Positions 29,209-57,170 of a stretch of 64,000 bases of DNA are shown here, piece after piece. The notes under the pieces are model-generated. The model saw nothing but the letters and a program-made list of their open reading frames with translations, did not search any database and was not told where the DNA came from. Positions within the stretch are counted from its first letter, which is position 1. The number at the start of each line of letters is the position of its first letter. Position numbers and translations under genes: made by a program. The stretch is from an uncultured archaeon (GTDB lineage: Archaea; Iainarchaeota; Iainarchaeia; Iainarchaeales; JAAZKV01): contig CAZHNO010000001.1 of NCBI GenBank assembly GCA_964534045.1, positions 1,786 to 65,785 on the forward strand, written 5' to 3'.

Positions 29209-30357
29209 TCAATCGTTTTCCCATTTCCCCAATTTAACCTGAAAACCTTTTTCTTTTTCCACAAATTTCTCTATTTTTTTATTACCTTTTTTTACTTCAG
29301 AGCCTAACTTCAAATAATTCAAATTAGAGTATTCTTCATACAATTTGTGTTTTTTTAAGTATTTTTCTAGTTTTTCCTTGTCCCATTTCAGTTTTTCTAT
29401 TTCTTTTATTGAAGCCTTCATTTTAGAGCCAAAAACAACGTTTATTTTGTGTTGTTTTGAATACTCAAACAAATCCTTTTGTAATTCTTCTTTTCTTTGT
29501 TTTAATTCATCTTCTTTTTCTTTTATTTCAACTAATTCATTAACTATTTTTACTCCTTCATCTTTCTTGAATTCTTTTATTGTTTTTTCTTCTAAATCTG
29601 CCTCGTGTTTGAAAGAAGGGCATAAGTGCTTGTAAACACAATAATCACATAATTTTGTTATGTTTGGAGGAAAGTCTTTACAATTAGTAATTTCATTGAT
29701 TTTTCCTATTGTTTCTTTTCTTATTTGTTTTAATTGTTCATAGGTTCTCGTGCTTTTTACTTCTTTATTAAATTTTAGCATATGCCACAACAATATTACT
29801 TTTTTTGCATCAGGATACTTTTGTTTAACCCAGAGAGAATACATTGCTAATTGCCTATCCTCATCCGCTTCTTTTTGCTCTTTCATTCTTGAATTTGTTT
29901 TATAATCACAAACAAAATAAGTGTCTCCTTTACAAGCCAACCTATCTATCCTAATTGAATAATTATTTGTTCCTAATTTTAAAAAATCACTTGTTTCTAA
30001 ACCAAGAATAGTATACTGCTCAAAAGGCTTGTAAGTATCATAATAATCTTCTAAAAATTTTTTTCCCTGAGTTTTGTAATTATTTGCTGTGTATTCTTTT
30101 TTAGTTATCTTTACTTCCTTTTCCTTTTCAAAATTTTTTTTCCACACTTCCTCATAATACTCTAACAATTCCTCTTTACTCAAATCCTTCCCATGCAACT
30201 TATCCCTATACAACTTCTCCAAAACCTCATGAACACAAGAACCCATAAACGCCTCAATAGTAGTCTCAACATCCACCCTAACCCTATCAACATACCTAAA
30301 CTTATAAGCCAACTTACAATTCTCAAACAACGAAATCTTTGAATGCGAGAAGTTCAT
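29209..30357 (-). CDS. Cas4-like PD-(D/E)xK nuclease with Fe-S cysteine cluster and coiled-coil C-terminal extension
   Basis: N-terminal Cys (FENCKLAYKFRY), IRIDRL..., VCDYKTN (D-x-K), and the C-x2-C-x5-C triad CDYCVYKHLC. Followed by about 120 aa of K/E-rich coiled coil. Confidence 0.6.
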   Translation of the reverse strand: MNFSHSKISLFENCKLAYKFRYVDRVRVDVETTIEAFMGSCVHEVLEKLYRDKLHGKDLSKEELLEYYEEVWKKNFEKEKEVKITKKEYTANNYKTQGKKFLEDYYDTYKPFEQYTILGLETSDFLKLGTNNYSIRIDRLACKGDTYFVCDYKTNSRMKEQKEADEDRQLAMYSLWVKQKYPDAKKVILLWHMLKFNKEVKSTRTYEQLKQIRKETIGKINEITNCKDFPPNITKLCDYCVYKHLCPSFKHEADLEEKTIKEFKKDEGVKIVNELVEIKEKEDELKQRKEELQKDLFEYSKQHKINVVFGSKMKASIKEIEKLKWDKEKLEKYLKKHKLYEEYSNLNYLKLGSEVKKGNKKIEKFVEKEKGFQVKLGKWEND

Positions 30358-30924
30358 TTATTTTTCACCCAAAGGAATTGCTTTTCTTATTTTACAATAA
30401 TGGTTTTCAGCTCTTATTTTAATTCCAATTTCTTTTGAAAAGAATTCAAATTCTCTTATTTTAGCATCTTTTTTTACTTTTTGTTCAATATCCTTTGGCA
30501 AGTATAATATTTTTGAAGAATGTGGATTATATAAGTCTAAAATAAATTTCCCTTGTTTTTCTGAATATTTTCCAATTTCTTTAACAATTTCATTGTGTAA
30601 TTTTTGTAATTCCTCATTTTTTTCTATTCTAATAACTAAATGAGATAAGTCTCCCGCTGAAAAAAGAGTTAATTCTTTTGATTTAATTTTAATTGGCTTG
30701 TATTTTTTTGCAATTTTTCTTAACATAGCTTCAATTTCATCTTTATGCTCAAAACAATTCCCCATTGAAAGCAAGGTTATGTGTGGAACATCATAATAAA
30801 TTCCATCATTAGGATGTTTGTTTTGACACTTTTTTGAATATTTTTTATGAAGCTCTTTTATCTCAGAATTAAGCTCTGAATACAATGGTTCTGGGATTGT
30901 CAAAACAATAGCAGTAGTCTCCAT
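30358..30924 (-). CDS. 2H phosphoesterase (LigT / 2'-5' RNA ligase-like)
   Basis: Two H-x-[TS]-x motifs (VPHITLL and NPHSSKIL) at LigT-like spacing; 188 aa. Start abuts the stop of the upstream nuclease gene. Confidence 0.45.
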   Translation of the reverse strand: METTAIVLTIPEPLYSELNSEIKELHKKYSKKCQNKHPNDGIYYDVPHITLLSMGNCFEHKDEIEAMLRKIAKKYKPIKIKSKELTLFSAGDLSHLVIRIEKNEELQKLHNEIVKEIGKYSEKQGKFILDLYNPHSSKILYLPKDIEQKVKKDAKIREFEFFSKEIGIKIRAENHYCKIRKAIPLGEK

Positions 30925-33956: not shown

Positions 33957-34091
33957 ATGGCAGAAATTATACTCAAAGGATACCAATGCGAAAGATGCGG
34001 ACACAAATGGGTTCCAAGAGAACAAAAAGAAAAACCAAGAGTATGCCCAAAATGTAAAAGTCCATATTGGGATAAGCCAAAGAAGAAATAA
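33957..34091 (+). CDS. Small zinc-ribbon protein (44 aa)
   Basis: MAEIILKGYQCERCGHKWVPREQKEKPRVCPKCKSPYWDKPKKK has two CxxC pairs. Not in the ORF track (under 60 aa). Immediately upstream of the C5-methyltransferase. Confidence 0.35.
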   Translation: MAEIILKGYQCERCGHKWVPREQKEKPRVCPKCKSPYWDKPKKK

Positions 34092-34218
34092 TTTTAGAAG
34101 CAATTATATATTTAGAATGAAAACACCCTTCAAAAACTTACAAGTAATACAAAAATGTTTAGTGGCACAAAACTAATATTAAGTTTATAAACAAAATAGA
34201 GATTAAATTTTATGTGGG

Positions 34219-35181
34219 ATGAGGATGAATAATAAAATAAAAGTTTTTGATAGCTTTACAGGTTATGGCGGTGCAAGTTGGGGTTTAAAGAAGGCAGGCA
34301 TTCCTTTTGAAGTTATTGGATATTCTGAAATTTGTCCAATGGCAATAGAATTATATGAATTAAATCATTCTCAAACCAAAAATTATGGAGACATCACAAA
34401 AATAAAACCTAACGATCTTCCAGATTTTGATTTATTCACTGGGGGTTTTCCATGCCAATCTTTTTCAACTGCTGGAAAAGGAATGGGTGAATTAGACACA
34501 AGAGGAACTTTGTTTTGCGATATTATAAGAATTTGCGAAGTTAAACAACCAAATTTTATTCTTTTAGAAAATGTTAAAGGATTATTGTCAAAAAGACACA
34601 AGGAAACTTTCAAAAAAATTATTAGCGAACTTCAAAGAATTGGATACAATGTAAGATATGAATTATTAAATTCAAAAGATTTTGGCATTCCTCAAAATAG
34701 AGAGCGTGTTTGGATTTTTGCAACTAAAAAACAAATACCTTTTGGTTGGCAATTAAGTCCACCTAAAGAAAAGTTAAAAAAGAATTTTAAAGACTTTTTA
34801 GATAAGAATGTAGATAAAAAATATTATAAAAATGAAAACCAAGTAATTAGATTAGAAGAAGTAACTGGAGTTAAATTAGAAGTTAATGAACCAACTTGCT
34901 TTGATGTATATAATAAAAAATTGAAAAAAGATGGGTTGTGCCTCACAATTACTGAACCACACCATAATACACTTAGAGTTGTTGAACCTAATGAAGATAA
35001 AAATAAAAGAGTTAGAAAAATGACTGAACAAGAACAATTTAAATTTATGGGTTTTGAAGAAAATGAATTAAATTTTGGTGAAATGTCATATACTAGATTG
35101 TCAAAATGTGCAGGCAATGGTTGGGATGTAAATTTAGTTAGTAAATTAATGAAAAGAATATTTGAAACAAAATGGGACTAA
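34219..35181 (+). CDS. dcm: DNA (cytosine-5)-methyltransferase
   Basis: Motif I FDSFTGYGG, motif IV GGFPCQSFS, motif VI ENVKGLL, motif VIII QNRERVWI, motif X CAGNGW; 320 aa. Confidence 0.85.
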   Translation: MRMNNKIKVFDSFTGYGGASWGLKKAGIPFEVIGYSEICPMAIELYELNHSQTKNYGDITKIKPNDLPDFDLFTGGFPCQSFSTAGKGMGELDTRGTLFCDIIRICEVKQPNFILLENVKGLLSKRHKETFKKIISELQRIGYNVRYELLNSKDFGIPQNRERVWIFATKKQIPFGWQLSPPKEKLKKNFKDFLDKNVDKKYYKNENQVIRLEEVTGVKLEVNEPTCFDVYNKKLKKDGLCLTITEPHHNTLRVVEPNEDKNKRVRKMTEQEQFKFMGFEENELNFGEMSYTRLSKCAGNGWDVNLVSKLMKRIFETKWD

Positions 35182-35726
35182 TTATATTTTTTATTCTTTA
35201 ACCTGTTTTTGTGATATTCATTATGTTTTTTTGCAAATTCTGATGGATAAGGAAAATGACTTTCTTGAAAATTCCAATCTGGATATTTTCCCTCTTTTGC
35301 AAAATATTCTTCTTTACAAAAGTCTTCCATTTCTTTAAAACTTGCTATTTCAACTTTCTTTGAACTTGATAAACCATTAATTGTAGCAAGAACTTTTGGA
35401 GAAGTTATTACATATAATTCAACTTTTGAACCACTAAGCAAAGCTTCTTCAATTAACAAATGGAGAACAAATCTTGGTACTCCCGGACTCCCAGTCATTG
35501 ATGTTACATAAAGGTTTATTGTTGATTTAATTCCCCCCTTTCCTGCGGACCCGCCAATTTTTTTTATAACTCCATCAAGAACAAATAAATACACGCGGGG
35601 AGTTTCATCTTTTAAATCATTTTTAGTTATCCCTGATAAATAATTAATATTAATTTTATTTGCATGCCCATCCCTTAGGGTGAATTCACCAAACTTTTTA
35701 GCATTAGTTGCTTCTGAAATATTCAT
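35178..35726 (-). CDS. Putative Type II restriction endonuclease partner of the C5-MTase (inferred from context only)
   Basis: 182 aa. Convergent with dcm, with a 4-nt overlap of the stop codons. No recognisable nuclease motif, so the call rests on arrangement. Confidence 0.3.
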   Translation of the reverse strand: MNISEATNAKKFGEFTLRDGHANKININYLSGITKNDLKDETPRVYLFVLDGVIKKIGGSAGKGGIKSTINLYVTSMTGSPGVPRFVLHLLIEEALLSGSKVELYVITSPKVLATINGLSSSKKVEIASFKEMEDFCKEEYFAKEGKYPDWNFQESHFPYPSEFAKKHNEYHKNRLKNKKYN

Positions 35727-35807
35727 AATAAATCAATATCTTTATTCTTTTTAATACTATCAAATAGTGTGGCAAGTCATTTATTGTTTTTACACAGAAT
35801 TTTTTTT

Positions 35808-35936
35808 CTAATGTTTTTTAACATTCATGGACCAAGTGCATTCTTTTGTTTTCCAACAACATACTTTATATTCATCTCCACCCAAATCTTCAACATGAAA
35901 ATTAGAAGACTTACAAACTGGACATCTAAAAACCAT
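35808..35936 (-). CDS. Small zinc-ribbon-like ORF (42 aa)
   Basis: MVFRCPVCKSSNFHVEDLGGDEYKVCCWKTKEC (CPVC ... CC ... C). Under 60 aa, so not in the ORF track. Confidence 0.2.
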   Translation of the reverse strand: MVFRCPVCKSSNFHVEDLGGDEYKVCCWKTKECTWSMNVKKH

Positions 35937-36090
35937 TAAACCACCTCAAAATAAATAAAAATGAAAGTGTGTAAAAAGCAATCTTTTAATCAATATTATT
36001 TTAGTTATACTAATGCACATTTCAACCTAAACTTTAAATACTTATTAAGTTAGTCAAATAAAAGCAAAAAATAGCTTTTAAAACGGTTTT

Positions 36091-37308
36091 ATGAAAGAAC
36101 ATTATATGGAAAAAGCAGTAGATATTTCAAAAATAAAAAATAAGCTTATAATTATTCATTATTCTTGTTCCAACATAAACCATTCGTTTCCTGAAATATC
36201 TGCAATTTCCGTTTTTGACACAAATTTGTGTGAAACTCACACGTTTCCAAGATTTACAAAAGACAAAAATGATGAGATTAGATTATTAACTGAATTTTTT
36301 AATTATATCTCCCCAAAAATAGCGGAGAAGTACGGATTTGTCGGGTGGTATTGGGGGGATAAATATGGCCTGGATCAAATAATAAAAAGATATAAACAAA
36401 TAACCAAAAAAAGACTTGAATTCAAAAGTTCAGACCTGGTTGTTTATGATTTAGTAAAAATACTCTCCCACAACATAACCACGTTTCTAAGTGGCGGGCT
36501 AAAAAATCTTGCTAACTTTAATAATTTAAATACCTCAAATTTTATTGACGGCGACCAAGAGATTGAACTTCTTAAAAAACAAGAATTTGAACAATTAGCA
36601 GATTCCACATCCACCAAAGTCAATGTAATTTATGATTTATTAATAAGGTACTTAAACAAAACACTAAAAACTCCCACAATCGAAGAAATCTATTTTGATT
36701 TTAAGGATGTTGGAGCACACCCAATATTCAAAAATAATATAACCCAAATCAAGGAGTTAATTAATACCAAAAATGTTAATATACAAAATGAAGTTTTGGA
36801 AGAGTTCCTTAGAAAATTACTTTATGGAAATGTAATAACCTCTCTCGAGACTTACCTTTCCGACGAATTTACTAGAATCGTAATAAATGACAAAGGGTTA
36901 ATTTCAAATTATGTAAAAGAAAGCAAAAAGTTTAATGGGGATAAAACTAAATTCAGCGAGATATATTCAAATATGCTCCTGGAAAGCAAAAACGGAAACG
37001 ACATTTCAATAGAAAGGTATGTTCGTAGCAAATGTATTGCAGATATAAGAGACTTAACATTTCATAATTTAAATTTAATAAAGCCCCTGTATAAAAACGT
37101 TCTTGGAATTGATTTTCCTAAAAACTTAGATTCTATTTATAGGGCCATTGAAATAAGACACGATTTAATACATAGAAACGGAAAAGATAAAAATGACAAA
37201 ACCCTTAGAATTACATATACCCAACTTACCAAGATTATACGAGATTCCATTAGTTTTGCTAATCATATTCATAAACAAACAAAACAATTAAACATTTCCA
37301 ACAAATAA
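36091..37308 (+). CDS. Hypothetical protein with C-terminal Rx4H (HEPN-like / Abi-like) motif
   Basis: 405 aa. EIRHDLIHRNG fits the HEPN R-x4-6-H motif near the C-terminus. Downstream of the R-M pair. Confidence 0.35.
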   Translation: MKEHYMEKAVDISKIKNKLIIIHYSCSNINHSFPEISAISVFDTNLCETHTFPRFTKDKNDEIRLLTEFFNYISPKIAEKYGFVGWYWGDKYGLDQIIKRYKQITKKRLEFKSSDLVVYDLVKILSHNITTFLSGGLKNLANFNNLNTSNFIDGDQEIELLKKQEFEQLADSTSTKVNVIYDLLIRYLNKTLKTPTIEEIYFDFKDVGAHPIFKNNITQIKELINTKNVNIQNEVLEEFLRKLLYGNVITSLETYLSDEFTRIVINDKGLISNYVKESKKFNGDKTKFSEIYSNMLLESKNGNDISIERYVRSKCIADIRDLTFHNLNLIKPLYKNVLGIDFPKNLDSIYRAIEIRHDLIHRNGKDKNDKTLRITYTQLTKIIRDSISFANHIHKQTKQLNISNK

Positions 37309-43854: not shown

Positions 43855-44460
43855 ATGTTTTTTCATAAGAAAGATAGTTTTTTAAAAACAATAATGCTTA
43901 TCTTGTCTAATAACCACCCTACCATTGCAACAGCAACGGTAGGATTATCTAATAAAATTTTTATTTTCATTGATGGAAGTAATTTTTATCATTCTTTAGT
44001 CAGTAGTTTTGGGACTGCAAAGATTGATTTAGAACTATTTTGCAAAACAATTTCTCAAAGTGGAGAATTAATACGAATAAATTATTACACTTCCCCCGTG
44101 TCAAGATTTGACAATTCTGAAGCTTATAAGTCACAACAAAAGTTTTTTGAAAAAATTAAAGAGATTAAGCTTTTGAATCTTTTTCTTGGAAGATTAGAAA
44201 AACATGGAAATGCAAGAATTGAAAAGGGAGTGGATGTAAAAATAGCAACAGATTTAATTTCTGGTGCATACAATAACAAATTTGATGTTGCAATTATTGT
44301 TTCAAATGATTCTGATTTTGTGCCAGCAATAGAAGAGGTGCAAAACATTGGGAAACAAGTTTGGAACATTAATATTCAAAAGAGAAAATCTTACCATTTA
44401 AACAAGATTTGTGATAAAACAATTACAATAAATAGTATTGAAAAGTTTTTGATAAAATAG
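43855..44460 (+). CDS. NYN/LabA-like (PIN-like) domain protein
   Basis: IFIFIDGSNFYHSL ... VDVKIATDLISGAYNNKFDVAIIVSNDSDFVPAIEE match the NYN-domain acidic motifs. Confidence 0.6.
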   Translation: MFFHKKDSFLKTIMLILSNNHPTIATATVGLSNKIFIFIDGSNFYHSLVSSFGTAKIDLELFCKTISQSGELIRINYYTSPVSRFDNSEAYKSQQKFFEKIKEIKLLNLFLGRLEKHGNARIEKGVDVKIATDLISGAYNNKFDVAIIVSNDSDFVPAIEEVQNIGKQVWNINIQKRKSYHLNKICDKTITINSIEKFLIK

Positions 44461-46883: not shown

Positions 46884-49800
46884 ATGAAAAAGATAGTAAA
46901 AATTTGGTTAATCGTTATTTTGATAGTTTTAGCTATCGTATTAATAAACTCAAATTTTTCTTTCACAGGGCTTTTTTTGCAAAAACAGGAATCAATTAGT
47001 TTTTCAGGAATTTGTAATAGCAATAACATTTGTGAAATTGGAGAGGATGATGAAAATTGTCCACAAGATTGTTTACCCAGGGCACCCAAAAATGAAAACT
47101 GCTTGTGCATTTACAGAAACGGAGATATTAATTCAGAAAAAATCTGTGAATATTATGCTGAAAAAAGGCCAGGAGTACATACTCTTGGTTTAAACTTAAG
47201 TTCAGGGATAGAAAGTGCACAAAAAAGCGTATTCATTTCTGAAGTTATTGATCCTCTTTGGGAATGGGTGGAAGCAAATGATGAATTAAAAATAACTCAT
47301 TTGGCAGTTGCAAGAGGCATTCCTACTGAAGTAATAATTGGAAATAGAACATATGGTGCTGCTTCAATGTTAGCCCTTTCAAAAGAATTTTATGATATTA
47401 GTCCTGGAATATCAGGAAATACACTAACTTTTATTCACTTTGATCCTGAAAAATATAAAACTGATGATGGAAAATATACATTCAGATTTGCTGTATCTTA
47501 TTTAACTGCTTATCAATTGGAAGATGTTTTAAAAATGATTGATAAAGCACAAGCCCCTATCCAAAATTTTGATGAATTAAAATGGTTTTTTGATGCGGAT
47601 GAAGATGAATTTCCAACAACTAAAATAAACTTAAAACAAGTTAAAGCAGAGTTAATAAAACAAGGAGTTCTTCCAGAAAATATTATTCTTGATTTTAACA
47701 ATGCTTTGCATACAAATCCTGAAGGCCCGATAATTGGATTTAATAGTGCAGGAAGACACCACACCGGTTATAGTCATTTATGGATGACACAAGAAAAATA
47801 TTTTAATCTTGAAGTTGCTAATCGCGCAATAATGAGTAGCGTTGAAAGTTATAATGCACACACTTTTTTTGGAAAACCTGATGAAAATATTGACGAAAGA
47901 ACAATTGGCCAAGGAAGAATTGCTGATGCTGTAAGCAAGATAGCTTTTGGGGGAGAAAATTATTCAAATAGTTTTGCAGGAGCAGGGGGAAATGTTACAG
48001 AACCATATCTGGGGTATCACATGAATGCAGAAAGATTTTTACCAGCATATGCTACTGGTTTAACACTTGGTGAAACTTTTTTAACAACACACCCATTAAG
48101 ATGGACTGCAATAATGATTGGAGACCCTTTAATGAGATTGATTGAAGATGATAAAGTTGGTTTACCAAATGGTACTGCTTGTGAAAATAATTCTCAATGT
48201 TATTCTAGAATTTGTGGAAATTCTCAAATTGGAGAAAAATTTTGTCATGCAAATCAAAATAATTGTGTTTATACTCAACAAAGTTTTGTTTATGATCTTA
48301 TGAATGGAAACAAAATTTGTAAGGAAATTACGAGCCAAACTGATATTTTATTTACTTGTGAAAATGGTACTTGGAAATTAGAAAAAGCCCCGGAGGAATA
48401 TTTGTGTAAATCAGTAAACTCTTTTTGGGATTTTGACGCAGACTTTTTTAAAAAAAATGGATTAGTTTGTTTGTCTGATGAAGAGTGTTATTCAAATGAT
48501 TGTAAAAAAGATTTAAGTGGAATAAAAAGATGTCAAAATAAAGACATTTGTCCAGTAAATAAAACTCAATATGTTAATAATAATTCATTTGCTTGTGTCT
48601 CAGAAAACCAAAAAATAAAATGTGTTAATGGTGAATGGGTAAACGGAATAATCAATTGCGATAATGAATGTATTGATGGAATGTGTTTGGGCGAATTTTT
48701 TACCCCTCCAAATATATTTACTATTGAAAAAAACAGGGATTATTATATGGCATTACCCATTAATCCTTCTTCAAAAAAAGTAAGTGATATTTTTGGAACA
48801 AATTTAGATTCTGGTAATCAAATTTATTTTTTTAGAAATAGTTGGACTTCAACAAGTTTTATTAAATTTGGAACAATTGAACAGTGGAATCCTGATTTGG
48901 AAATTAAAAATGGCGAGGGTTTTTTATTGAATCTAAATAGTGATATTAACATAATTATTGAAGGAGATGAAATAACTGAATCATTTCCTATTGAAATTAA
49001 AGGAAGTTCTAATTTGATAGGAATTCCAACACTGGGTAAAAAAAGAATGGCTTCTGAAGTTTTAGAAGAAATTAATTTACTAGATGATAGCTGTTATACA
49101 ATAAAATCTGGAGGAGGAAATGGAAAAAGTTATTCTATTACTAATGAAGGTGTTGAAGGAGAAGATTTTGAAATTTTTAATTATATTGCTTATTGGATTA
49201 TTTGTGATGAAAATACTAATATTACTTGGGTGCCTTTTGAAAATGAATGTACTCCTGGAGAATTTTGTGGATTAAATAGTTGTGAAGCAAATTATTGTGT
49301 TGATAATTTACTAAAAAAATTTCCACAAAATTGTGAAAAATTTTGTAATAATAACAGAGAATGTGTAGGTTGTTCTTGCACAGTAATTGAACAAAATTGT
49401 GGTTCAAATGCACTATGTTCTAATGGGGTTTGTTTAAGTTGTGGAGATAATTTTGCTAATTGTGATGGGATTACTGGCAATGGTTGTGAAATAAATGTTA
49501 AAGAAGATAACGGAAATTGTGGTTCTTGTGGAAATATTTGTGGTGATGGTAAAGAGTGTATTAATGGCGTTTGTGAAGATATAAATTTATGTAAAAATAT
49601 AAATTGTGGAACGAATGCATTTTGTAAATCTGAAACAGGTTCTTGTGAATGTTTTAACAATTATTTAAATTGTGATAATAACTTTAGTAATGGATGTGAG
49701 CTTAGTACAAGTACAGGTTGTCCAGAATGTGAAAATAATGAAAGTAGACTTTGTGTAAATGAAAAATTGTGTTTAGGTTCGCAAGCTTGTGAAAATAAAA

Positions 49801-50813
49801 AATGGAATCAATGTTTAATTGAAACTGAATGTGAATTTGGAGAAGTAAGAACTTGCACTCCAAAAATTAATGGTGAAGATTGTAATTTAGTATTAGGAAA
49901 TCAAACATGTAACAAATGTGGGCAATGGGAAGCTTGCACAGTAAGTAGTAACATAAACTGTTGCAGTGGAAAAAAAGAAAATTGTTTTATAAATGGTTGT
50001 GAAGGAAAAAAACATTGTGTGGGTTTTATTTGGCAAGATTGTAAAAAAAATGATTTGCTTTGTGGATTAAACAACACTAGCACATTTGACTTAGATAATT
50101 TAAGCACTTCTAACACTAGCGAAGGTAGTTCAAATTTTTGTAAAAATAGTGATTGTGGTGAGGATGAATACTGTGTAGAAAATAAGTGTGTTAAGTTAGA
50201 GTGCATAGATGGATTTATAATAAAAAATCATGAATGTGTCTGTAATGGAATATTATGTAATGGATTTTGTTACGATACTATTGGAATTTGTTGTAATAAT
50301 AATTGGAATGAAGAGCTTGATTCTTGTGAAACTGAAAGAAATATTGTTTTAAATATAGTCATGAATTCAAAAAATAATGAAGCAATCAAACTTTATGATG
50401 AAGCTGAAGAATCAATAAAAAAAGGAGAAATTAAAAAAGCAAAAGCTCAGCTAAAAATTGCTGAGTTGAAAGCAAAAGAAAATATTAAAAATAAAGAGCT
50501 TGTTTATGAAAGCTTAGAAAAAATTAACCTTGCAATGCAAAATGAAAAATATTCTGAAGCAGAAAACCTCGCAATAGATGCATTAAATAATCTGAAAAAA
50601 GAAAATGAATTTGAACAATTTATGGATGGAGATTTTGCACAAACCATCTTACTAATCTTAAGTATTATTTTTTTATTAATTATTATTGTTGAAGTTAGTC
50701 CAAGAGTTTACAAAAAAGTGAAAAATAAAAGTGGTGGAAAGAAAAAAAATAAAAAAATAGTCAAAAGTGAAAAAGAAAAAATCTTAGAAGAACTAAAAAA
50801 ACAATTTAAATAA
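46884..50813 (+). CDS. Giant (1309 aa) cysteine-rich cell-surface protein with C-terminal TM anchor
   Basis: N-terminal signal/TM and an about 400-aa globular region. Then about 700 aa of EGF-like Cys-rich modules (…NCDGITGNGCEINV…, …NCDNNFSNGCELST…). A coiled-coil stalk, TM helix and K-rich cytoplasmic tail follow. Confidence 0.6.
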   Translation: MKKIVKIWLIVILIVLAIVLINSNFSFTGLFLQKQESISFSGICNSNNICEIGEDDENCPQDCLPRAPKNENCLCIYRNGDINSEKICEYYAEKRPGVHTLGLNLSSGIESAQKSVFISEVIDPLWEWVEANDELKITHLAVARGIPTEVIIGNRTYGAASMLALSKEFYDISPGISGNTLTFIHFDPEKYKTDDGKYTFRFAVSYLTAYQLEDVLKMIDKAQAPIQNFDELKWFFDADEDEFPTTKINLKQVKAELIKQGVLPENIILDFNNALHTNPEGPIIGFNSAGRHHTGYSHLWMTQEKYFNLEVANRAIMSSVESYNAHTFFGKPDENIDERTIGQGRIADAVSKIAFGGENYSNSFAGAGGNVTEPYLGYHMNAERFLPAYATGLTLGETFLTTHPLRWTAIMIGDPLMRLIEDDKVGLPNGTACENNSQCYSRICGNSQIGEKFCHANQNNCVYTQQSFVYDLMNGNKICKEITSQTDILFTCENGTWKLEKAPEEYLCKSVNSFWDFDADFFKKNGLVCLSDEECYSNDCKKDLSGIKRCQNKDICPVNKTQYVNNNSFACVSENQKIKCVNGEWVNGIINCDNECIDGMCLGEFFTPPNIFTIEKNRDYYMALPINPSSKKVSDIFGTNLDSGNQIYFFRNSWTSTSFIKFGTIEQWNPDLEIKNGEGFLLNLNSDINIIIEGDEITESFPIEIKGSSNLIGIPTLGKKRMASEVLEEINLLDDSCYTIKSGGGNGKSYSITNEGVEGEDFEIFNYIAYWIICDENTNITWVPFENECTPGEFCGLNSCEANYCVDNLLKKFPQNCEKFCNNNRECVGCSCTVIEQNCGSNALCSNGVCLSCGDNFANCDGITGNGCEINVKEDNGNCGSCGNICGDGKECINGVCEDINLCKNINCGTNAFCKSETGSCECFNNYLNCDNNFSNGCELSTSTGCPECENNESRLCVNEKLCLGSQACENKKWNQCLIETECEFGEVRTCTPKINGEDCNLVLGNQTCNKCGQWEACTVSSNINCCSGKKENCFINGCEGKKHCVGFIWQDCKKNDLLCGLNNTSTFDLDNLSTSNTSEGSSNFCKNSDCGEDEYCVENKCVKLECIDGFIIKNHECVCNGILCNGFCYDTIGICCNNNWNEELDSCETERNIVLNIVMNSKNNEAIKLYDEAEESIKKGEIKKAKAQLKIAELKAKENIKNKELVYESLEKINLAMQNEKYSEAENLAIDALNNLKKENEFEQFMDGDFAQTILLILSIIFLLIIIVEVSPRVYKKVKNKSGGKKKNKKIVKSEKEKILEELKKQFK

Positions 50814-55109: not shown

Positions 55110-57170
55110 TTAGATTTTATTTTCTAACTTAGCATTTTTAATAATCAATGTTCCAGTAAATTCATTTTCCATTTTCTTTTCAAATTTAACGCTTAATCTT
55201 TTTTCAAACAAAGGCATATCCAAAACAAGTGTTTCATATTCTCCACCTTCACCAGCAACATTAATTTTAAACTTTTTTTCCAACGCAATTAACTTTTCAA
55301 CATCAGCAATTTTTAAAATTTTCCCCAGCCATTCTTCACCCAAACCATAACAAGCTATTTTTGTAATCATAATTGAAAATTTTTCTTTGATTAATTGTTT
55401 CATATATTGTGCTTGATTCATTTGCCATAGCGGAGCAAACGCTCTAATGCCAAGGGATTCACAAATTTTTTCAATTCTTTCTCTTTGATAATTTGAAAAT
55501 AATGCTCCTGAACAAATTCCTTCAATATTATATTTTTTCTTAGCTTCTTTTATTGCTTTTTTTAAATCACTTAATTCTTTTTCTTTTTTTCCAATTGTTT
55601 TCACTAATACCAAATGCTTTCCTAATGATTGTGCTTGTAACTTTGCTAAAGCAATTGTTGGAGTATGAAACATATAGGAATCTTTATTCTTTGAATCAAT
55701 TGTAATTAAGCATTTTATATCATATCCTTGTTTTTGCATTAAACTCATTGCAAATAAAGAATCTTTTCCTGTTGAAATAAGTGCAGCGATTGAAATATTT
55801 TTCCTATCTTCTTTTTTTTGTAAAGAATTCAAATAATCAGCTTTTGATCTAAACTTGTTTTTCCTAGCTAACTTTTCTAAAGCTTTATCAAAATTACTTC
55901 CATATTGAGCTGCTTTCTTTGGGCGATAAGCAATTTCTTTATTCAAGCCAAGTGATTCTGCAAATTCTCGCAATAATAATTTATTTTGCTTTTTGTCAGA
56001 AGATATTTTATATTTTGGTTCTAAAGCAAGAGATGCTTGAACAAGCTCTTTGTCAAGATAAGGTAGCCTTAATTCTGTCTTGTTATTCATGCAAATAATA
56101 TCTTCAAAATATAAATCATTTTCATACATTTTTATCAAATAAGAATAGCAATCTTTATTCACATCAGTGCTTTCTTTAAAACGAGCATAACCAGCAAATA
56201 GTTCATCCGCACCCAAACCAGAAAAACAAACTTTTTCTTTAATTGATTTTGTTGCAAAATAAATCGTGCTTGCAACACCAACTCTAACAGGGTCTGTTGA
56301 CTCTATTAAAGAAATTATTTTTGGTAATTCTTTTTCATATTCTTTTAGAGAAACTAAATTGATTTTTAATACTGAATTTAAATCATAGGATGCTTTTTTA
56401 GCAAATTCTAGGTCAACTGGCTCAGCAAAATCTTTTATTCCTGCAAAATAAGAAGTGAATTTTATCTTATTATTCTTCAAAATCAAACCAATTAATGTTG
56501 AATCAACTCCTCCAGAAAGAAGTAATGCTACTTTTTGTTCTGGAACTCTTTTAGTAACTGCACTTAATAGTAATTTTTGTATTTCTTCCTTTGGCCCCTT
56601 CAACTTTGTCTTTTTAATAATTCTTTTCTTAATAATCAAGCTTTTTGTTTTAATATTATAAATCAAAATCTCTCTTGGATTAAGATTTTTTGAATCAAAT
56701 TTAAGTGCTTTCTTTTCTGAAGCAAAAATAATTTTCTCTTTATCAATAAAATATACTAATGGTTTTACTCCAAACAAATCTCTTGCAAGAATAATTTTTT
56801 CTTCTTTTTTTGAGTAATAAGAAAATGCAAAAACACCATCTAATTCTTCAACTATTTCGGCAATATTTGAAATTCCTTTTTTATCAATTAATTTTTGTAT
56901 TAATTCAGCATCATTTTTTACATTCAATTTATTTTTCTCGCTTAGTTCTTTCCAATTATAAATTTCACAATTCGCTATACATAAACTTTCTTTTGTAACA
57001 AGGGGTTGTTTAACAAAATCAATTATTGAATGTAAATTATGCCCAAAAACAACTTCTTTATATTTAATAATTTTAGAAGCGTCTTTACCCCTATTTTGCA
57101 TTATTTTTAATCCTTTAGAACAAATTTCTCTTCCTAAAGGAGTATTTGCTGAACCTATTATTCCACACAT
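55110..57170 (-). CDS. Fusion protein: glutamine-hydrolysing asparagine synthase (AsnB)-like + MJ0570/Dph6-type ATP-binding (diphthine--ammonia ligase-like) domain
   Basis: N-terminal MCGIIG (Cys2 Ntn nucleophile), LDGVFAFSYY, RDLFGVKPLVY, SGGVDS PP-loop and SGLGADELFAGY. The C-terminal 230 aa carry STGKDS, DSYMFHTPTIALAKLQAQSLG, GKKEKELSDLKKAIKEAKKKY and GEGGEYETLVLDMPLFEKR. That region aligns nearly motif-for-motif with M. jannaschii MJ0570. Confidence 0.75.
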   Translation of the reverse strand: MCGIIGSANTPLGREICSKGLKIMQNRGKDASKIIKYKEVVFGHNLHSIIDFVKQPLVTKESLCIANCEIYNWKELSEKNKLNVKNDAELIQKLIDKKGISNIAEIVEELDGVFAFSYYSKKEEKIILARDLFGVKPLVYFIDKEKIIFASEKKALKFDSKNLNPREILIYNIKTKSLIIKKRIIKKTKLKGPKEEIQKLLLSAVTKRVPEQKVALLLSGGVDSTLIGLILKNNKIKFTSYFAGIKDFAEPVDLEFAKKASYDLNSVLKINLVSLKEYEKELPKIISLIESTDPVRVGVASTIYFATKSIKEKVCFSGLGADELFAGYARFKESTDVNKDCYSYLIKMYENDLYFEDIICMNNKTELRLPYLDKELVQASLALEPKYKISSDKKQNKLLLREFAESLGLNKEIAYRPKKAAQYGSNFDKALEKLARKNKFRSKADYLNSLQKKEDRKNISIAALISTGKDSLFAMSLMQKQGYDIKCLITIDSKNKDSYMFHTPTIALAKLQAQSLGKHLVLVKTIGKKEKELSDLKKAIKEAKKKYNIEGICSGALFSNYQRERIEKICESLGIRAFAPLWQMNQAQYMKQLIKEKFSIMITKIACYGLGEEWLGKILKIADVEKLIALEKKFKINVAGEGGEYETLVLDMPLFEKRLSVKFEKKMENEFTGTLIIKNAKLENKI

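Follow-up and report, generated by a model that had tools for sequence, protein, structure and literature searches.

Five open reading frames (ORFs) lie close together at positions 33957-37308 of a 64,000-nt stretch of contig CAZHNO010000001.1 (hereafter the window), which belongs to an uncultured archaeon of the Iainarchaeales. Do they form one defence system, and what is the 182-amino-acid (aa) protein whose gene converges on that of a C5-cytosine DNA methyltransferase? A first, sequence-only reading had described a single compact defence locus consisting of this pair, two Zn-ribbon mini-ORFs and a 405-aa protein with a HEPN-like signature, in which the 182-aa partner had no recognisable nuclease motif and might represent a novel restriction-enzyme fold. 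The ORF list reproduced all five ORFs at the coordinates given earlier, but the interpretation changes in two respects. The 182-aa protein is a predicted nuclease of the GIY-YIG type, and we are fairly confident that the locus is best explained as a self-contained Type II restriction-modification system (34219-35726), with GATC as its likely target, that stands beside a separate HEPN module.

Fold and candidate active site of the 182-aa protein

The structure of the 182-aa protein was predicted with AlphaFold2 (AF2) on an alignment of 40 homologues, and the resulting model is confident (predicted local distance difference test, pLDDT, 91.7; predicted template modelling score, pTM, 0.86). Foldseek searches of the PDB with this model retrieved R.Hpy188I (E 1e-7), T4 endonuclease II (EndoII; E 6e-7, template modelling (TM) score 0.69-0.74 on the target) and the GIY-YIG domain of UvrC, all with probabilities of 0.8-1.0. 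One other match, to beta-glucuronidase, outranked UvrC by E-value at a probability of 0.30, and the matches below UvrC were unrelated noise. A profile built from 61 diverse family members aligned to T4 EndoII in hhalign with a probability of 94.9% (E 4.7e-8), and this alignment sets Y46 on the tyrosine of the GIY motif and K56 on that of the YIG motif. Across the 61 members Y46, G58, Y73, E134, P149, N152 and E155 are invariant, and the nuclease core comprises approximately residues 40-157 (35256-35609). The further candidate catalytic residues R85, H89, E134 and N152 (Table 1) were matched to known catalytic residues by order and spacing, not by coordinates. In addition, the family is matched by the phage protein profile phrog_1111, 'endonuclease' (1.2e-14).

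The YIG tyrosine is thus absent from the 182-aa protein. Hpy188I, a bona fide GIY-YIG member, has the same change (K73), and a lysine at this position is therefore compatible with membership in the superfamily. The active site of Hpy188I consists of Y63, K73, R84 and Y88 together with the metal ligand E149 (PMC3045582). Both proteins have the Tyr-x9-Lys spacing, and in both an arginine on a helix is followed four positions on by a polar residue (Arg-x3-aromatic/His). Based on the confident model, the three structure matches, the profile homology to EndoII, the invariant residues and the Hpy188I-like spacing, the 182-aa protein is assigned to the GIY-YIG nucleases as a predicted member with a Tyr...Lys variant of the motif. 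The fold and the profile thus bear out its earlier description as a putative nuclease, and the structure matches plus the hhalign result rule out the novel restriction-enzyme fold that had been considered. Three observations weigh against the assignment: the TM-score to Hpy188I is just ~0.47, neither the 182-aa protein nor any of the 61 diverse relatives is matched by Pfam, NCBIfam or PADLOC, and single-sequence and profile searches of the 182-aa protein against solved structures returned noise only.

Among characterised enzymes, R.Hpy188I from Helicobacter pylori (TCN/GA; PDB 3OQG, 3OR3) is the best Foldseek match and, as a Type IIP GIY-YIG enzyme, has a similarly small size (~170-180 aa). 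It differs from the window protein in the lack of detectable sequence similarity, in its target, which in the window is probably GATC, and in the C5 type of the window's methyltransferase. T4 EndoII (DenA; PDB 2WSH) is the closest relative by profile and by structure, and cyanophage members of the family bridge both groups. However, EndoII retains the canonical YIG tyrosine and is a solitary degrader of host DNA with a degenerate site and without a cognate site-specific methyltransferase. A third comparison is offered by R.Eco29kI and R.Cfr42I (CCGC/GG), GIY-YIG restriction enzymes that are paired with a C5-cytosine methyltransferase; R104-x3-H108 of R.Eco29kI resembles R85-x3-H89 of the window protein, but both enzymes keep the two motif tyrosines and recognise a 6-bp GC-only site. 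Neither was found among the structure matches at E <= 0.001. GIY-YIG restriction enzymes are known but few: a classification from 2008 distinguished just two such subfamilies, Eco29kI and Hpy188I, or ~1% of subfamilies (PMC2441816). The window family is closest to T4 EndoII and Hpy188I and is not covered by curated models.

Pairing with DNA methyltransferases

The protein encoded by the convergent gene is, judged by its sequence motifs, a standard C5-cytosine DNA methyltransferase. It matches PF00145 with an E-value of 1.2e-71 (242 bits versus a cut-off of 22), TIGR00675 with 3.7e-74 and PADLOC MTase_II with 1.3e-78, and motifs I, IV, VI, VIII and X can be read in its translation as FxGxG (FTGYGG), PCQ, ENV, QNRER and GNG, in agreement with the sequence-only reading. 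The product called by NCBI has 318 aa, as its start is the second methionine (34225). With ten conserved motifs in standard order and a size of ~320 aa, the enzyme resembles the monospecific M.HaeIII and M.HhaI, which are its nearest solved structures. This match is limited to the catalytic domain (residues 10-194) and so gives no information on specificity; as the target-recognition domain has no relation to theirs, their specificity is not transferable. A homologue search with the C5 enzyme yielded no names that carry a specificity.

The two genes overlap tail-to-tail by the four nucleotides CTAA, a junction that had been noted before and is real: TAA stops the methyltransferase and, on the opposite strand, TAG stops the 182-aa ORF. 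The homologue searches returned 551 sequences for the 182-aa ORF, 23 for the 405-aa ORF and thousands for the methyltransferase, which shows that these three ORFs did not arise by chance. The nuclease homologues (~180 aa, 60-80% identity; 256 clusters at the 50% identity level) occur in DPANN archaea and Patescibacteria. More distant homologues in T4-like cyanophages (hits H1-H11, 31-44% identity) bear the labels 'endonuclease' or 'GIY-YIG nuclease family protein'. In one public assembly a member of the family is called 'Type II restriction endonuclease'. No match to the nuclease was obtained in a search of plasmids.

For the gene neighbourhood, 112 related loci were compared, of which 29 derive from species-representative genomes, 80 from metagenomes and three from exact look-up. 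A methyltransferase of the D12 class, i.e., an amino-methyltransferase, converges on the nuclease gene within a few nucleotides in 104 of them. The other eight comprise two loci with a C5 partner, five contigs that end too early and a single partnerless nuclease; a convergent methyltransferase of either class is thus present in 106/112 loci. Three more loci from Tara Oceans (L130-L132), outside the 112, have a C5-type partner, and in L008, L026 and L130-L132 the nuclease homologue has as its tail-to-tail neighbour an orthologue of the window's methyltransferase (53-70% identity). Moreover, several Patescibacteria loci have an Xre-type helix-turn-helix (HTH) gene directly upstream of the nuclease gene, the classical controller arrangement, and in one family member nuclease and D12 methyltransferase form a fusion protein. 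The convergent pairing across more than 100 loci, the Xre genes and the D12 fusion make it very probable that methyltransferase and 182-aa nuclease constitute a Type II restriction-modification system, the arrangement recognised earlier from this one locus. A Vsr-type repair enzyme, which the sequence-only reading had named as the alternative, is not what the 182-aa ORF encodes; its usual partner is an amino-methyltransferase, and T:G mismatch repair in a Vsr/Dcm couple cannot account for such a pairing.

Several of the related loci have features of their own. In Synechococcus phage S-P4 (L036:2501-3930) the nuclease homologue is followed by a co-directional D12 methyltransferase, a couple resembling a phage-borne restriction-modification pair. 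A second, diverged nuclease copy (34-41% identity) is located just upstream of the main one in L023:1480-2035 and L110:825-1379, and the L023 copy is frameshifted. In one Parcubacteria locus (L001:325-4444), genes for Vsr, a reverse transcriptase and AbiEii stand beside the restriction-modification pair and make up a small defence island with it. The D12 partners of many Patescibacteria (L001:5542-7080, L011-L016, L018, L019, L024, L030-L032) possess an N-terminal module of a LexA DNA-binding domain and an S24 peptidase, and a second methyltransferase in L001 (1-193), of C5 type, carries the same fusion. These fusion proteins have the look of self-cleaving repressors and may tie the expression of restriction-modification genes to DNA damage.

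Exchange of the methyltransferase

The C5 partner found in the window is a rare variant within the nuclease family. The nearest relative of the nuclease (P0002, 80% identity; locus L040) has a D12 methyltransferase as its partner, with an identical 4-nt overlap. Vice versa, the partner of the nearest methyltransferase relative (P0296, 84% identity) is an unrelated 249-aa ORF, and other orthologues of the methyltransferase are coupled to unrelated ORFs of 238, 256 or 676 aa; three such loci (L124, L126, L129) again show the 4-nt junction. C5 methyltransferase orthologues therefore pair with four mutually unrelated putative nucleases (182, 238/249/256 and 676 aa). The four nucleases with a C5 partner do not group together in a neighbour-joining tree but are dispersed among the D12-partnered ones. 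Given this scatter and the D12 partner of P0002, sequence comparison indicates that the C5 variant has arisen several times and that the methyltransferase has been repeatedly exchanged. Such an exchange implies a common protected site for the D12 and C5 enzymes.

The surroundings of the closest nuclease relative (L040:1-5200) have the look of a mobile element, with a D5_N/DUF5906 primase, fragments of IS200/605 TnpA and TnpB, a truncated C5 methyltransferase and many tiny ORFs. As a further observation, the partners of the C5 orthologues (60-84% identity) include at least three additional unannotated and mutually unrelated putative nucleases (238, 249/256 and 676 aa; Table 1).

Target site

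The depletion of short palindromes points to GATC. With 36 sites versus 106 expected (ratio 0.34), GATC has the lowest observed/expected ratio of the 136 strand-symmetric tetramers in the window. In 27 genome loci of the D12 type, too, it is more depleted than any other 4-bp palindrome (0.40 overall, 0.26 in the archaeal loci); one of them, a Campylobacterales locus (L034), contains 0 GATC versus 57 expected. GATC again ranks first in 80 independent metagenome loci (0.48, z ~-18). In two control loci that contain only a homologue of the 405-aa protein the ratio is 0.78. GATC has both an adenine and a cytosine and so fits what an exchange between amino- and C5-methyltransferases requires. On balance, we slightly favour GATC as the target of the pair. 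Some findings speak against it. The depletion is weak in two C5-type loci (L026, 0.84; L124, 0.88), and the best solved relative of the D12 partner is M.CbeI, an N4-cytosine enzyme specific for GGCC (1.5e-10 versus 3e-6 for DpnM), so that the type of D12 methyltransferase alone gives no pointer to GATC. Furthermore, GATC avoidance is common in prokaryotes and could stem from other systems in the same genomes.

A restriction-modification pair directed at another C-containing short palindrome, such as ACNGT, GTAC, TCGA or GGCC, is the foremost alternative and is possible, if clearly less likely. Among short palindromes in the window, ACNGT ranks second in avoidance (35 versus 62 expected; ratio 0.56 under a maximal-order and 0.36 under an order 2 Markov model), Hpy188I, the closest structural relative, cuts the interrupted palindrome TCN/GA, and both M.CbeI and M.HaeIII, the best solved relatives of the D12 partner and of the C5 enzyme, respectively, are GGCC enzymes. 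However, the ACNGT depletion does not recur in the pooled related loci (0.74), and the M.HaeIII match concerns the catalytic domain, not the target-recognition domain, whereas GATC comes first in all three independent sequence sets. The site of Hpy188I itself, TCNGA, was rejected, as it is not depleted (0.84-0.89; 0.84 in the window), and GGCC, suggested by M.CbeI, was not adopted because its ratio in the window is 0.91. A literature search on GATC-specific GIY-YIG enzymes, BstKTI and RiboL-PSP gave nothing of use besides the reviews cited here.

The ACNGT avoidance in the window may reflect a further restriction specificity of the genome. ACNGT, not GATC, is also scarce in the 5.5-kb stretch of phage S-P4 (1 site versus 9.5 expected).

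Proposed mechanism and significance

In the Type II system with GATC as its probable site, the C5 methyltransferase would mark a short palindrome in the host DNA, and the 182-aa endonuclease, probably a homodimer like R.Hpy188I and R.Eco29kI, would cut the unmethylated site in incoming DNA. By analogy to Hpy188I, Tyr46 may activate the attacking water, Lys56 and Arg85 may hold the scissile phosphate, and Glu134 may coordinate a single metal ion. Cleavage would produce a short 3' overhang. In the window and a few further lineages, an isospecific C5 enzyme would have taken the place of the D12 partner while the 4-nt stop-codon junction stayed the same. The 405-aa gene is envisaged as a separate single-protein module, in which a nucleic-acid-binding domain of exonuclease fold would be joined to a HEPN ribonuclease domain.

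The nuclease family is a large one with members in archaea, Patescibacteria and cyanophages, and none of Pfam, NCBIfam and PADLOC detects it. Its methyltransferases will therefore be scored as orphans wherever the defence genes of DPANN and Patescibacteria are surveyed with these libraries. For annotation, suitable names are, as predictions, GIY-YIG restriction endonuclease for the 182-aa ORF and exonuclease-fold/HEPN protein for the 405-aa ORF. While the general understanding of restriction-modification is unchanged, two features are of modest interest. The repeated exchange of methyltransferase types is a clean natural case of the replacement of an amino-methyltransferase by a C5 enzyme within one restriction-enzyme family, and the probable GATC specificity on a GIY-YIG scaffold would, if true, add a new fold to the GATC isoschizomers, probably with a 3' overhang. 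More speculatively, and rather doubtfully in our view, the family could represent a third, uncharacterised lineage of GIY-YIG restriction enzymes: EndoII-like, distributed over two domains of life and cyanophages, specific for GATC, blocked by A/N4C and C5 methylation alike and hence served by methyltransferases exchangeable at a constant 4-nt junction, with a Zn-ribbon peptide of ~40 aa replacing the HTH controller in some DPANN.

The 405-aa protein

The 405-aa protein appears to consist of two domains (Table 1). Its C-terminal half contains EIRHDLIHRNG at residues 354-364, and R356, H357, H361, R362, N363, G364 and K365 (motif RHDxxHRNGK, including Rx4H) are invariant in 21 sequences. Six of the 23 homologues are full-length (44-50% identity) and the remainder have in common the C-terminal half only, preceded by other N-terminal modules, e.g., HEPN/RES-NTD1 or Mrr_N. 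Two full-length homologues (P0124, P0126) match nearly the whole RiboL-PSP-HEPN profile PF18735 with 36-37 bits (cut-off 28.4), and 8/21 homologues match it in total. The HEPN signature noticed in the sequence-only reading is thereby upheld, and the sequence evidence supports the C-terminal domain as a predicted ribonuclease of the RiboL-PSP-type HEPN family. In the AF2 model (pLDDT 86.5) residues 197-404 form helices only. This assignment has its weak points: the window protein itself has no HEPN match in Pfam at E <= 1, and the connection is transitive, via homologues of 44-50% identity. The top Foldseek lists were dominated by matches to the N-terminal domain and contained no HEPN structure.

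The Foldseek matches of this N-terminal domain were the exonuclease domains of T7 and RB69/family-B polymerases, RNase T and viral DEDDh/YprB proteins, and homologue P0127 matches RNase_H_2 (PF13482). The DxE motif is missing; the first strand reads IIIHYSCS, in which H-[YF]-S is kept in all 7 full-length sequences, the position of the motif on strand 1 being taken from predicted secondary structure and not from structural superposition. As H-[YF]-S stands where the DxE motif should be, the domain is probably a nucleic-acid-binding module that has lost exonuclease activity.

Variable N-terminal domains joined to a constant HEPN domain are the pattern of Abi-type toxins, and the 405-aa protein is most likely an abortive-infection or toxin-type RNase. 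The PF18735 family has been described as bacterial and as distantly related to AbiD/AbiF (Anantharaman et al. 2013, PMC3710099). The window protein shares with it the invariant Rx4H within RHDxxHRNGK and has homologues above the Pfam threshold, but is archaeal and is fused to a DnaQ/RNase H-like domain instead of endoRNase L-PSP.

The Zn-ribbon mini-ORFs

Two Zn-ribbon mini-ORFs had been reported to flank the pair as possible controller proteins. Both ORFs exist, but the 42-aa one lacks a canonical second CxxC knuckle, since its CPVC is followed by an irregular CC/C group. The 44-aa ORF has Zn-ribbon matches below threshold only (Zn_ribbon_8 9e-5, DUF7573 1e-4) and is not contained in the NCBI-derived protein set, where the 42-aa ORF is a called gene. 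No counterpart of the 44-aa ORF is present upstream of the orthologous methyltransferases (L008, L026) or in any related locus, and it is probably a small gene in its own right that is not conserved with the system.

The 42-aa ORF has a Shine-Dalgarno-like motif, GAGGTG, 5 nt before its ATG. Controller proteins regulate restriction-modification systems such as PvuII and Esp1396I, and the window resembles these systems in having a small ORF directly upstream of the nuclease gene and on the same strand, a position at which bacterial relatives encode Xre-type HTH proteins. The window ORF differs in that it encodes a Cys-rich peptide to which Pfam, NCBIfam and PADLOC assign no HTH; no C-box was identified, although C-boxes were not systematically searched. 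A relaxed phmmer search with both Zn-ribbon ORFs against all ORFs of the related loci found no homologue. The position of the 42-aa ORF is suggestive, if weakly, of a controller role.

Unrelated small Zn-ribbon ORFs occur in the same place in L009/L046, L027, L081, L097 and L130. They measure 42-97 aa and lie directly upstream of the nuclease gene in archaeal-type loci (L009:267-398, L097:3309-3437, L027:5665-5958, L081, L130:5066-5209), and the L097 peptide belongs to a cluster of 13 members from many contigs. Small Zn-ribbon genes are abundant in these genomes, and their recurrence upstream of the nuclease is for this reason weak evidence.

One system or independent neighbours

If the five ORFs acted together, the HEPN RNase would serve as the abortive-infection effector of a second line of defence, with the Zn-ribbon proteins as controllers. 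We regard such a five-gene system as very improbable, even though the genes lie side by side, a common 154-bp intergenic region separates the divergent 42-aa ORF and 405-aa gene, and Zn-ribbon ORFs stand upstream of the nuclease gene in 5/74 distinct loci, with L130 in addition, versus 1.2% of background small ORFs. It is also true that HEPN families are frequent beside restriction-modification operons (PMC3710099). However, homologues of the 405-aa protein are absent from all ~115 related restriction-modification loci, no related locus has a homologue of either Zn-ribbon ORF, and the recurring Zn-ribbon ORFs are not mutually homologous. Homologues of the 405-aa protein adjoin genes for a Hef helicase and a histone, or for radical-SAM proteins and transposases, and restriction-modification genes are absent from their vicinity. 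From these unrelated contexts and the absence from related loci it follows that the HEPN gene neighbours the restriction-modification pair but is independent of it, and the notion of one compact defence locus has to be abandoned.

The least likely explanation is that the 182-aa protein is a homing-type or Vsr-like repair nuclease travelling with methyltransferase genes: GIY-YIG domains are typical of homing endonucleases and UvrC, T4-like cyanophages have homologues, and 60-80% identity across archaea and bacteria is unusually high conservation for a restriction enzyme, but the family occurs without an intron, intein or free-standing homing context, its amino-methyltransferase partners, fixed convergent junction, Xre genes and methyltransferase fusion are foreign to such a role, a D12 methyltransferase accompanies even the cyanophage copy, and one specific palindrome is avoided in the host loci.

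Gene layout and other features of the window

The coordinates of the locus and its candidate functional residues are compiled in Table 1.

Table 1. Features of the restriction-modification locus and its neighbours (window coordinates unless a locus is named).
Feature	Position	Strand	Basis or remark
Zn-ribbon mini-ORF, 44 aa, CxxC...CxxC	33957-34091	+	ORF list; 127 nt upstream of methyltransferase gene
Predicted C5-cytosine DNA methyltransferase, 320 aa	34219-35181	+	Modification half of restriction-modification pair
Predicted GIY-YIG-type Type II restriction endonuclease, 182 aa	35178-35726	-	Model, profile, conserved pairing
Stop-codon overlap CTAA (4 nt) of convergent methyltransferase and nuclease genes	35178-35181		Read from sequence
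Candidate catalytic N152	35271-35273	-	Invariant in 61 members
Candidate catalytic E134	35325-35327	-	Invariant in 61 members
Candidate catalytic H89	35460-35462	-	Invariant among closer 40
Candidate catalytic R85	35472-35474	-	Invariant among closer 40
Candidate catalytic K56	35559-35561	-	>=90% conserved in 61 members; YIG Tyr position, motif KIG
Candidate catalytic Y46	35589-35591	-	Invariant in 61 diverse members; GIY Tyr position
Cys-rich mini-ORF, 42 aa	35808-35936	-	81 nt upstream of nuclease gene, same strand
Two-domain protein, predicted DnaQ/RNase H-like + HEPN, 405 aa	36091-37308	+	Neighbour, outside the pair
Predicted N-terminal DnaQ/RNase H-like domain, ~residues 15-195	36133-36675	+	AF2/Foldseek
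Predicted HEPN domain, RiboL-PSP type, ~residues 210-400	36718-37290	+	PF18735 matches of homologues, Rx4H
R356	37156-37158	+	Rx4H motif
H361	37171-37173	+	Rx4H motif
C5 orthologue with unannotated partner	L129:1432-3140; L124:3501-5173; L126:3501-5230; L123:3501-6478		Most with the same 4-nt convergent overlap

The window has a G+C content of ~28%, and the closest homologues of the locus genes are found in assemblies of Nanoarchaeota, Pacearchaeota and Woesearchaeota. A scan for promoters and terminators found such sites no more frequently than in shuffled sequence. Most other genes encode small membrane or secreted proteins and housekeeping functions; archaeal-type genes include an AMP-phosphorylase-like protein and an asparagine-synthase/diphthamide-synthase fusion (55110-57170, minus strand), and together with the taxonomy of the homologues they make a DPANN archaeon the probable host. 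A 1309-aa ORF (46884-50813, plus strand) has no Pfam match at E <= 1e-5, and an NYN-domain (RNase-type) protein is encoded at 43855-44460 (plus strand). Approximately 3 kb upstream of the locus (29209-30924, minus strand), a gene for a Cas4/AddB-like PD-(D/E)XK nuclease (382 aa, PF12705 7e-32) abuts that of a LigT-like 2H phosphoesterase (188 aa), a couple that possibly functions in nucleic-acid repair or defence.

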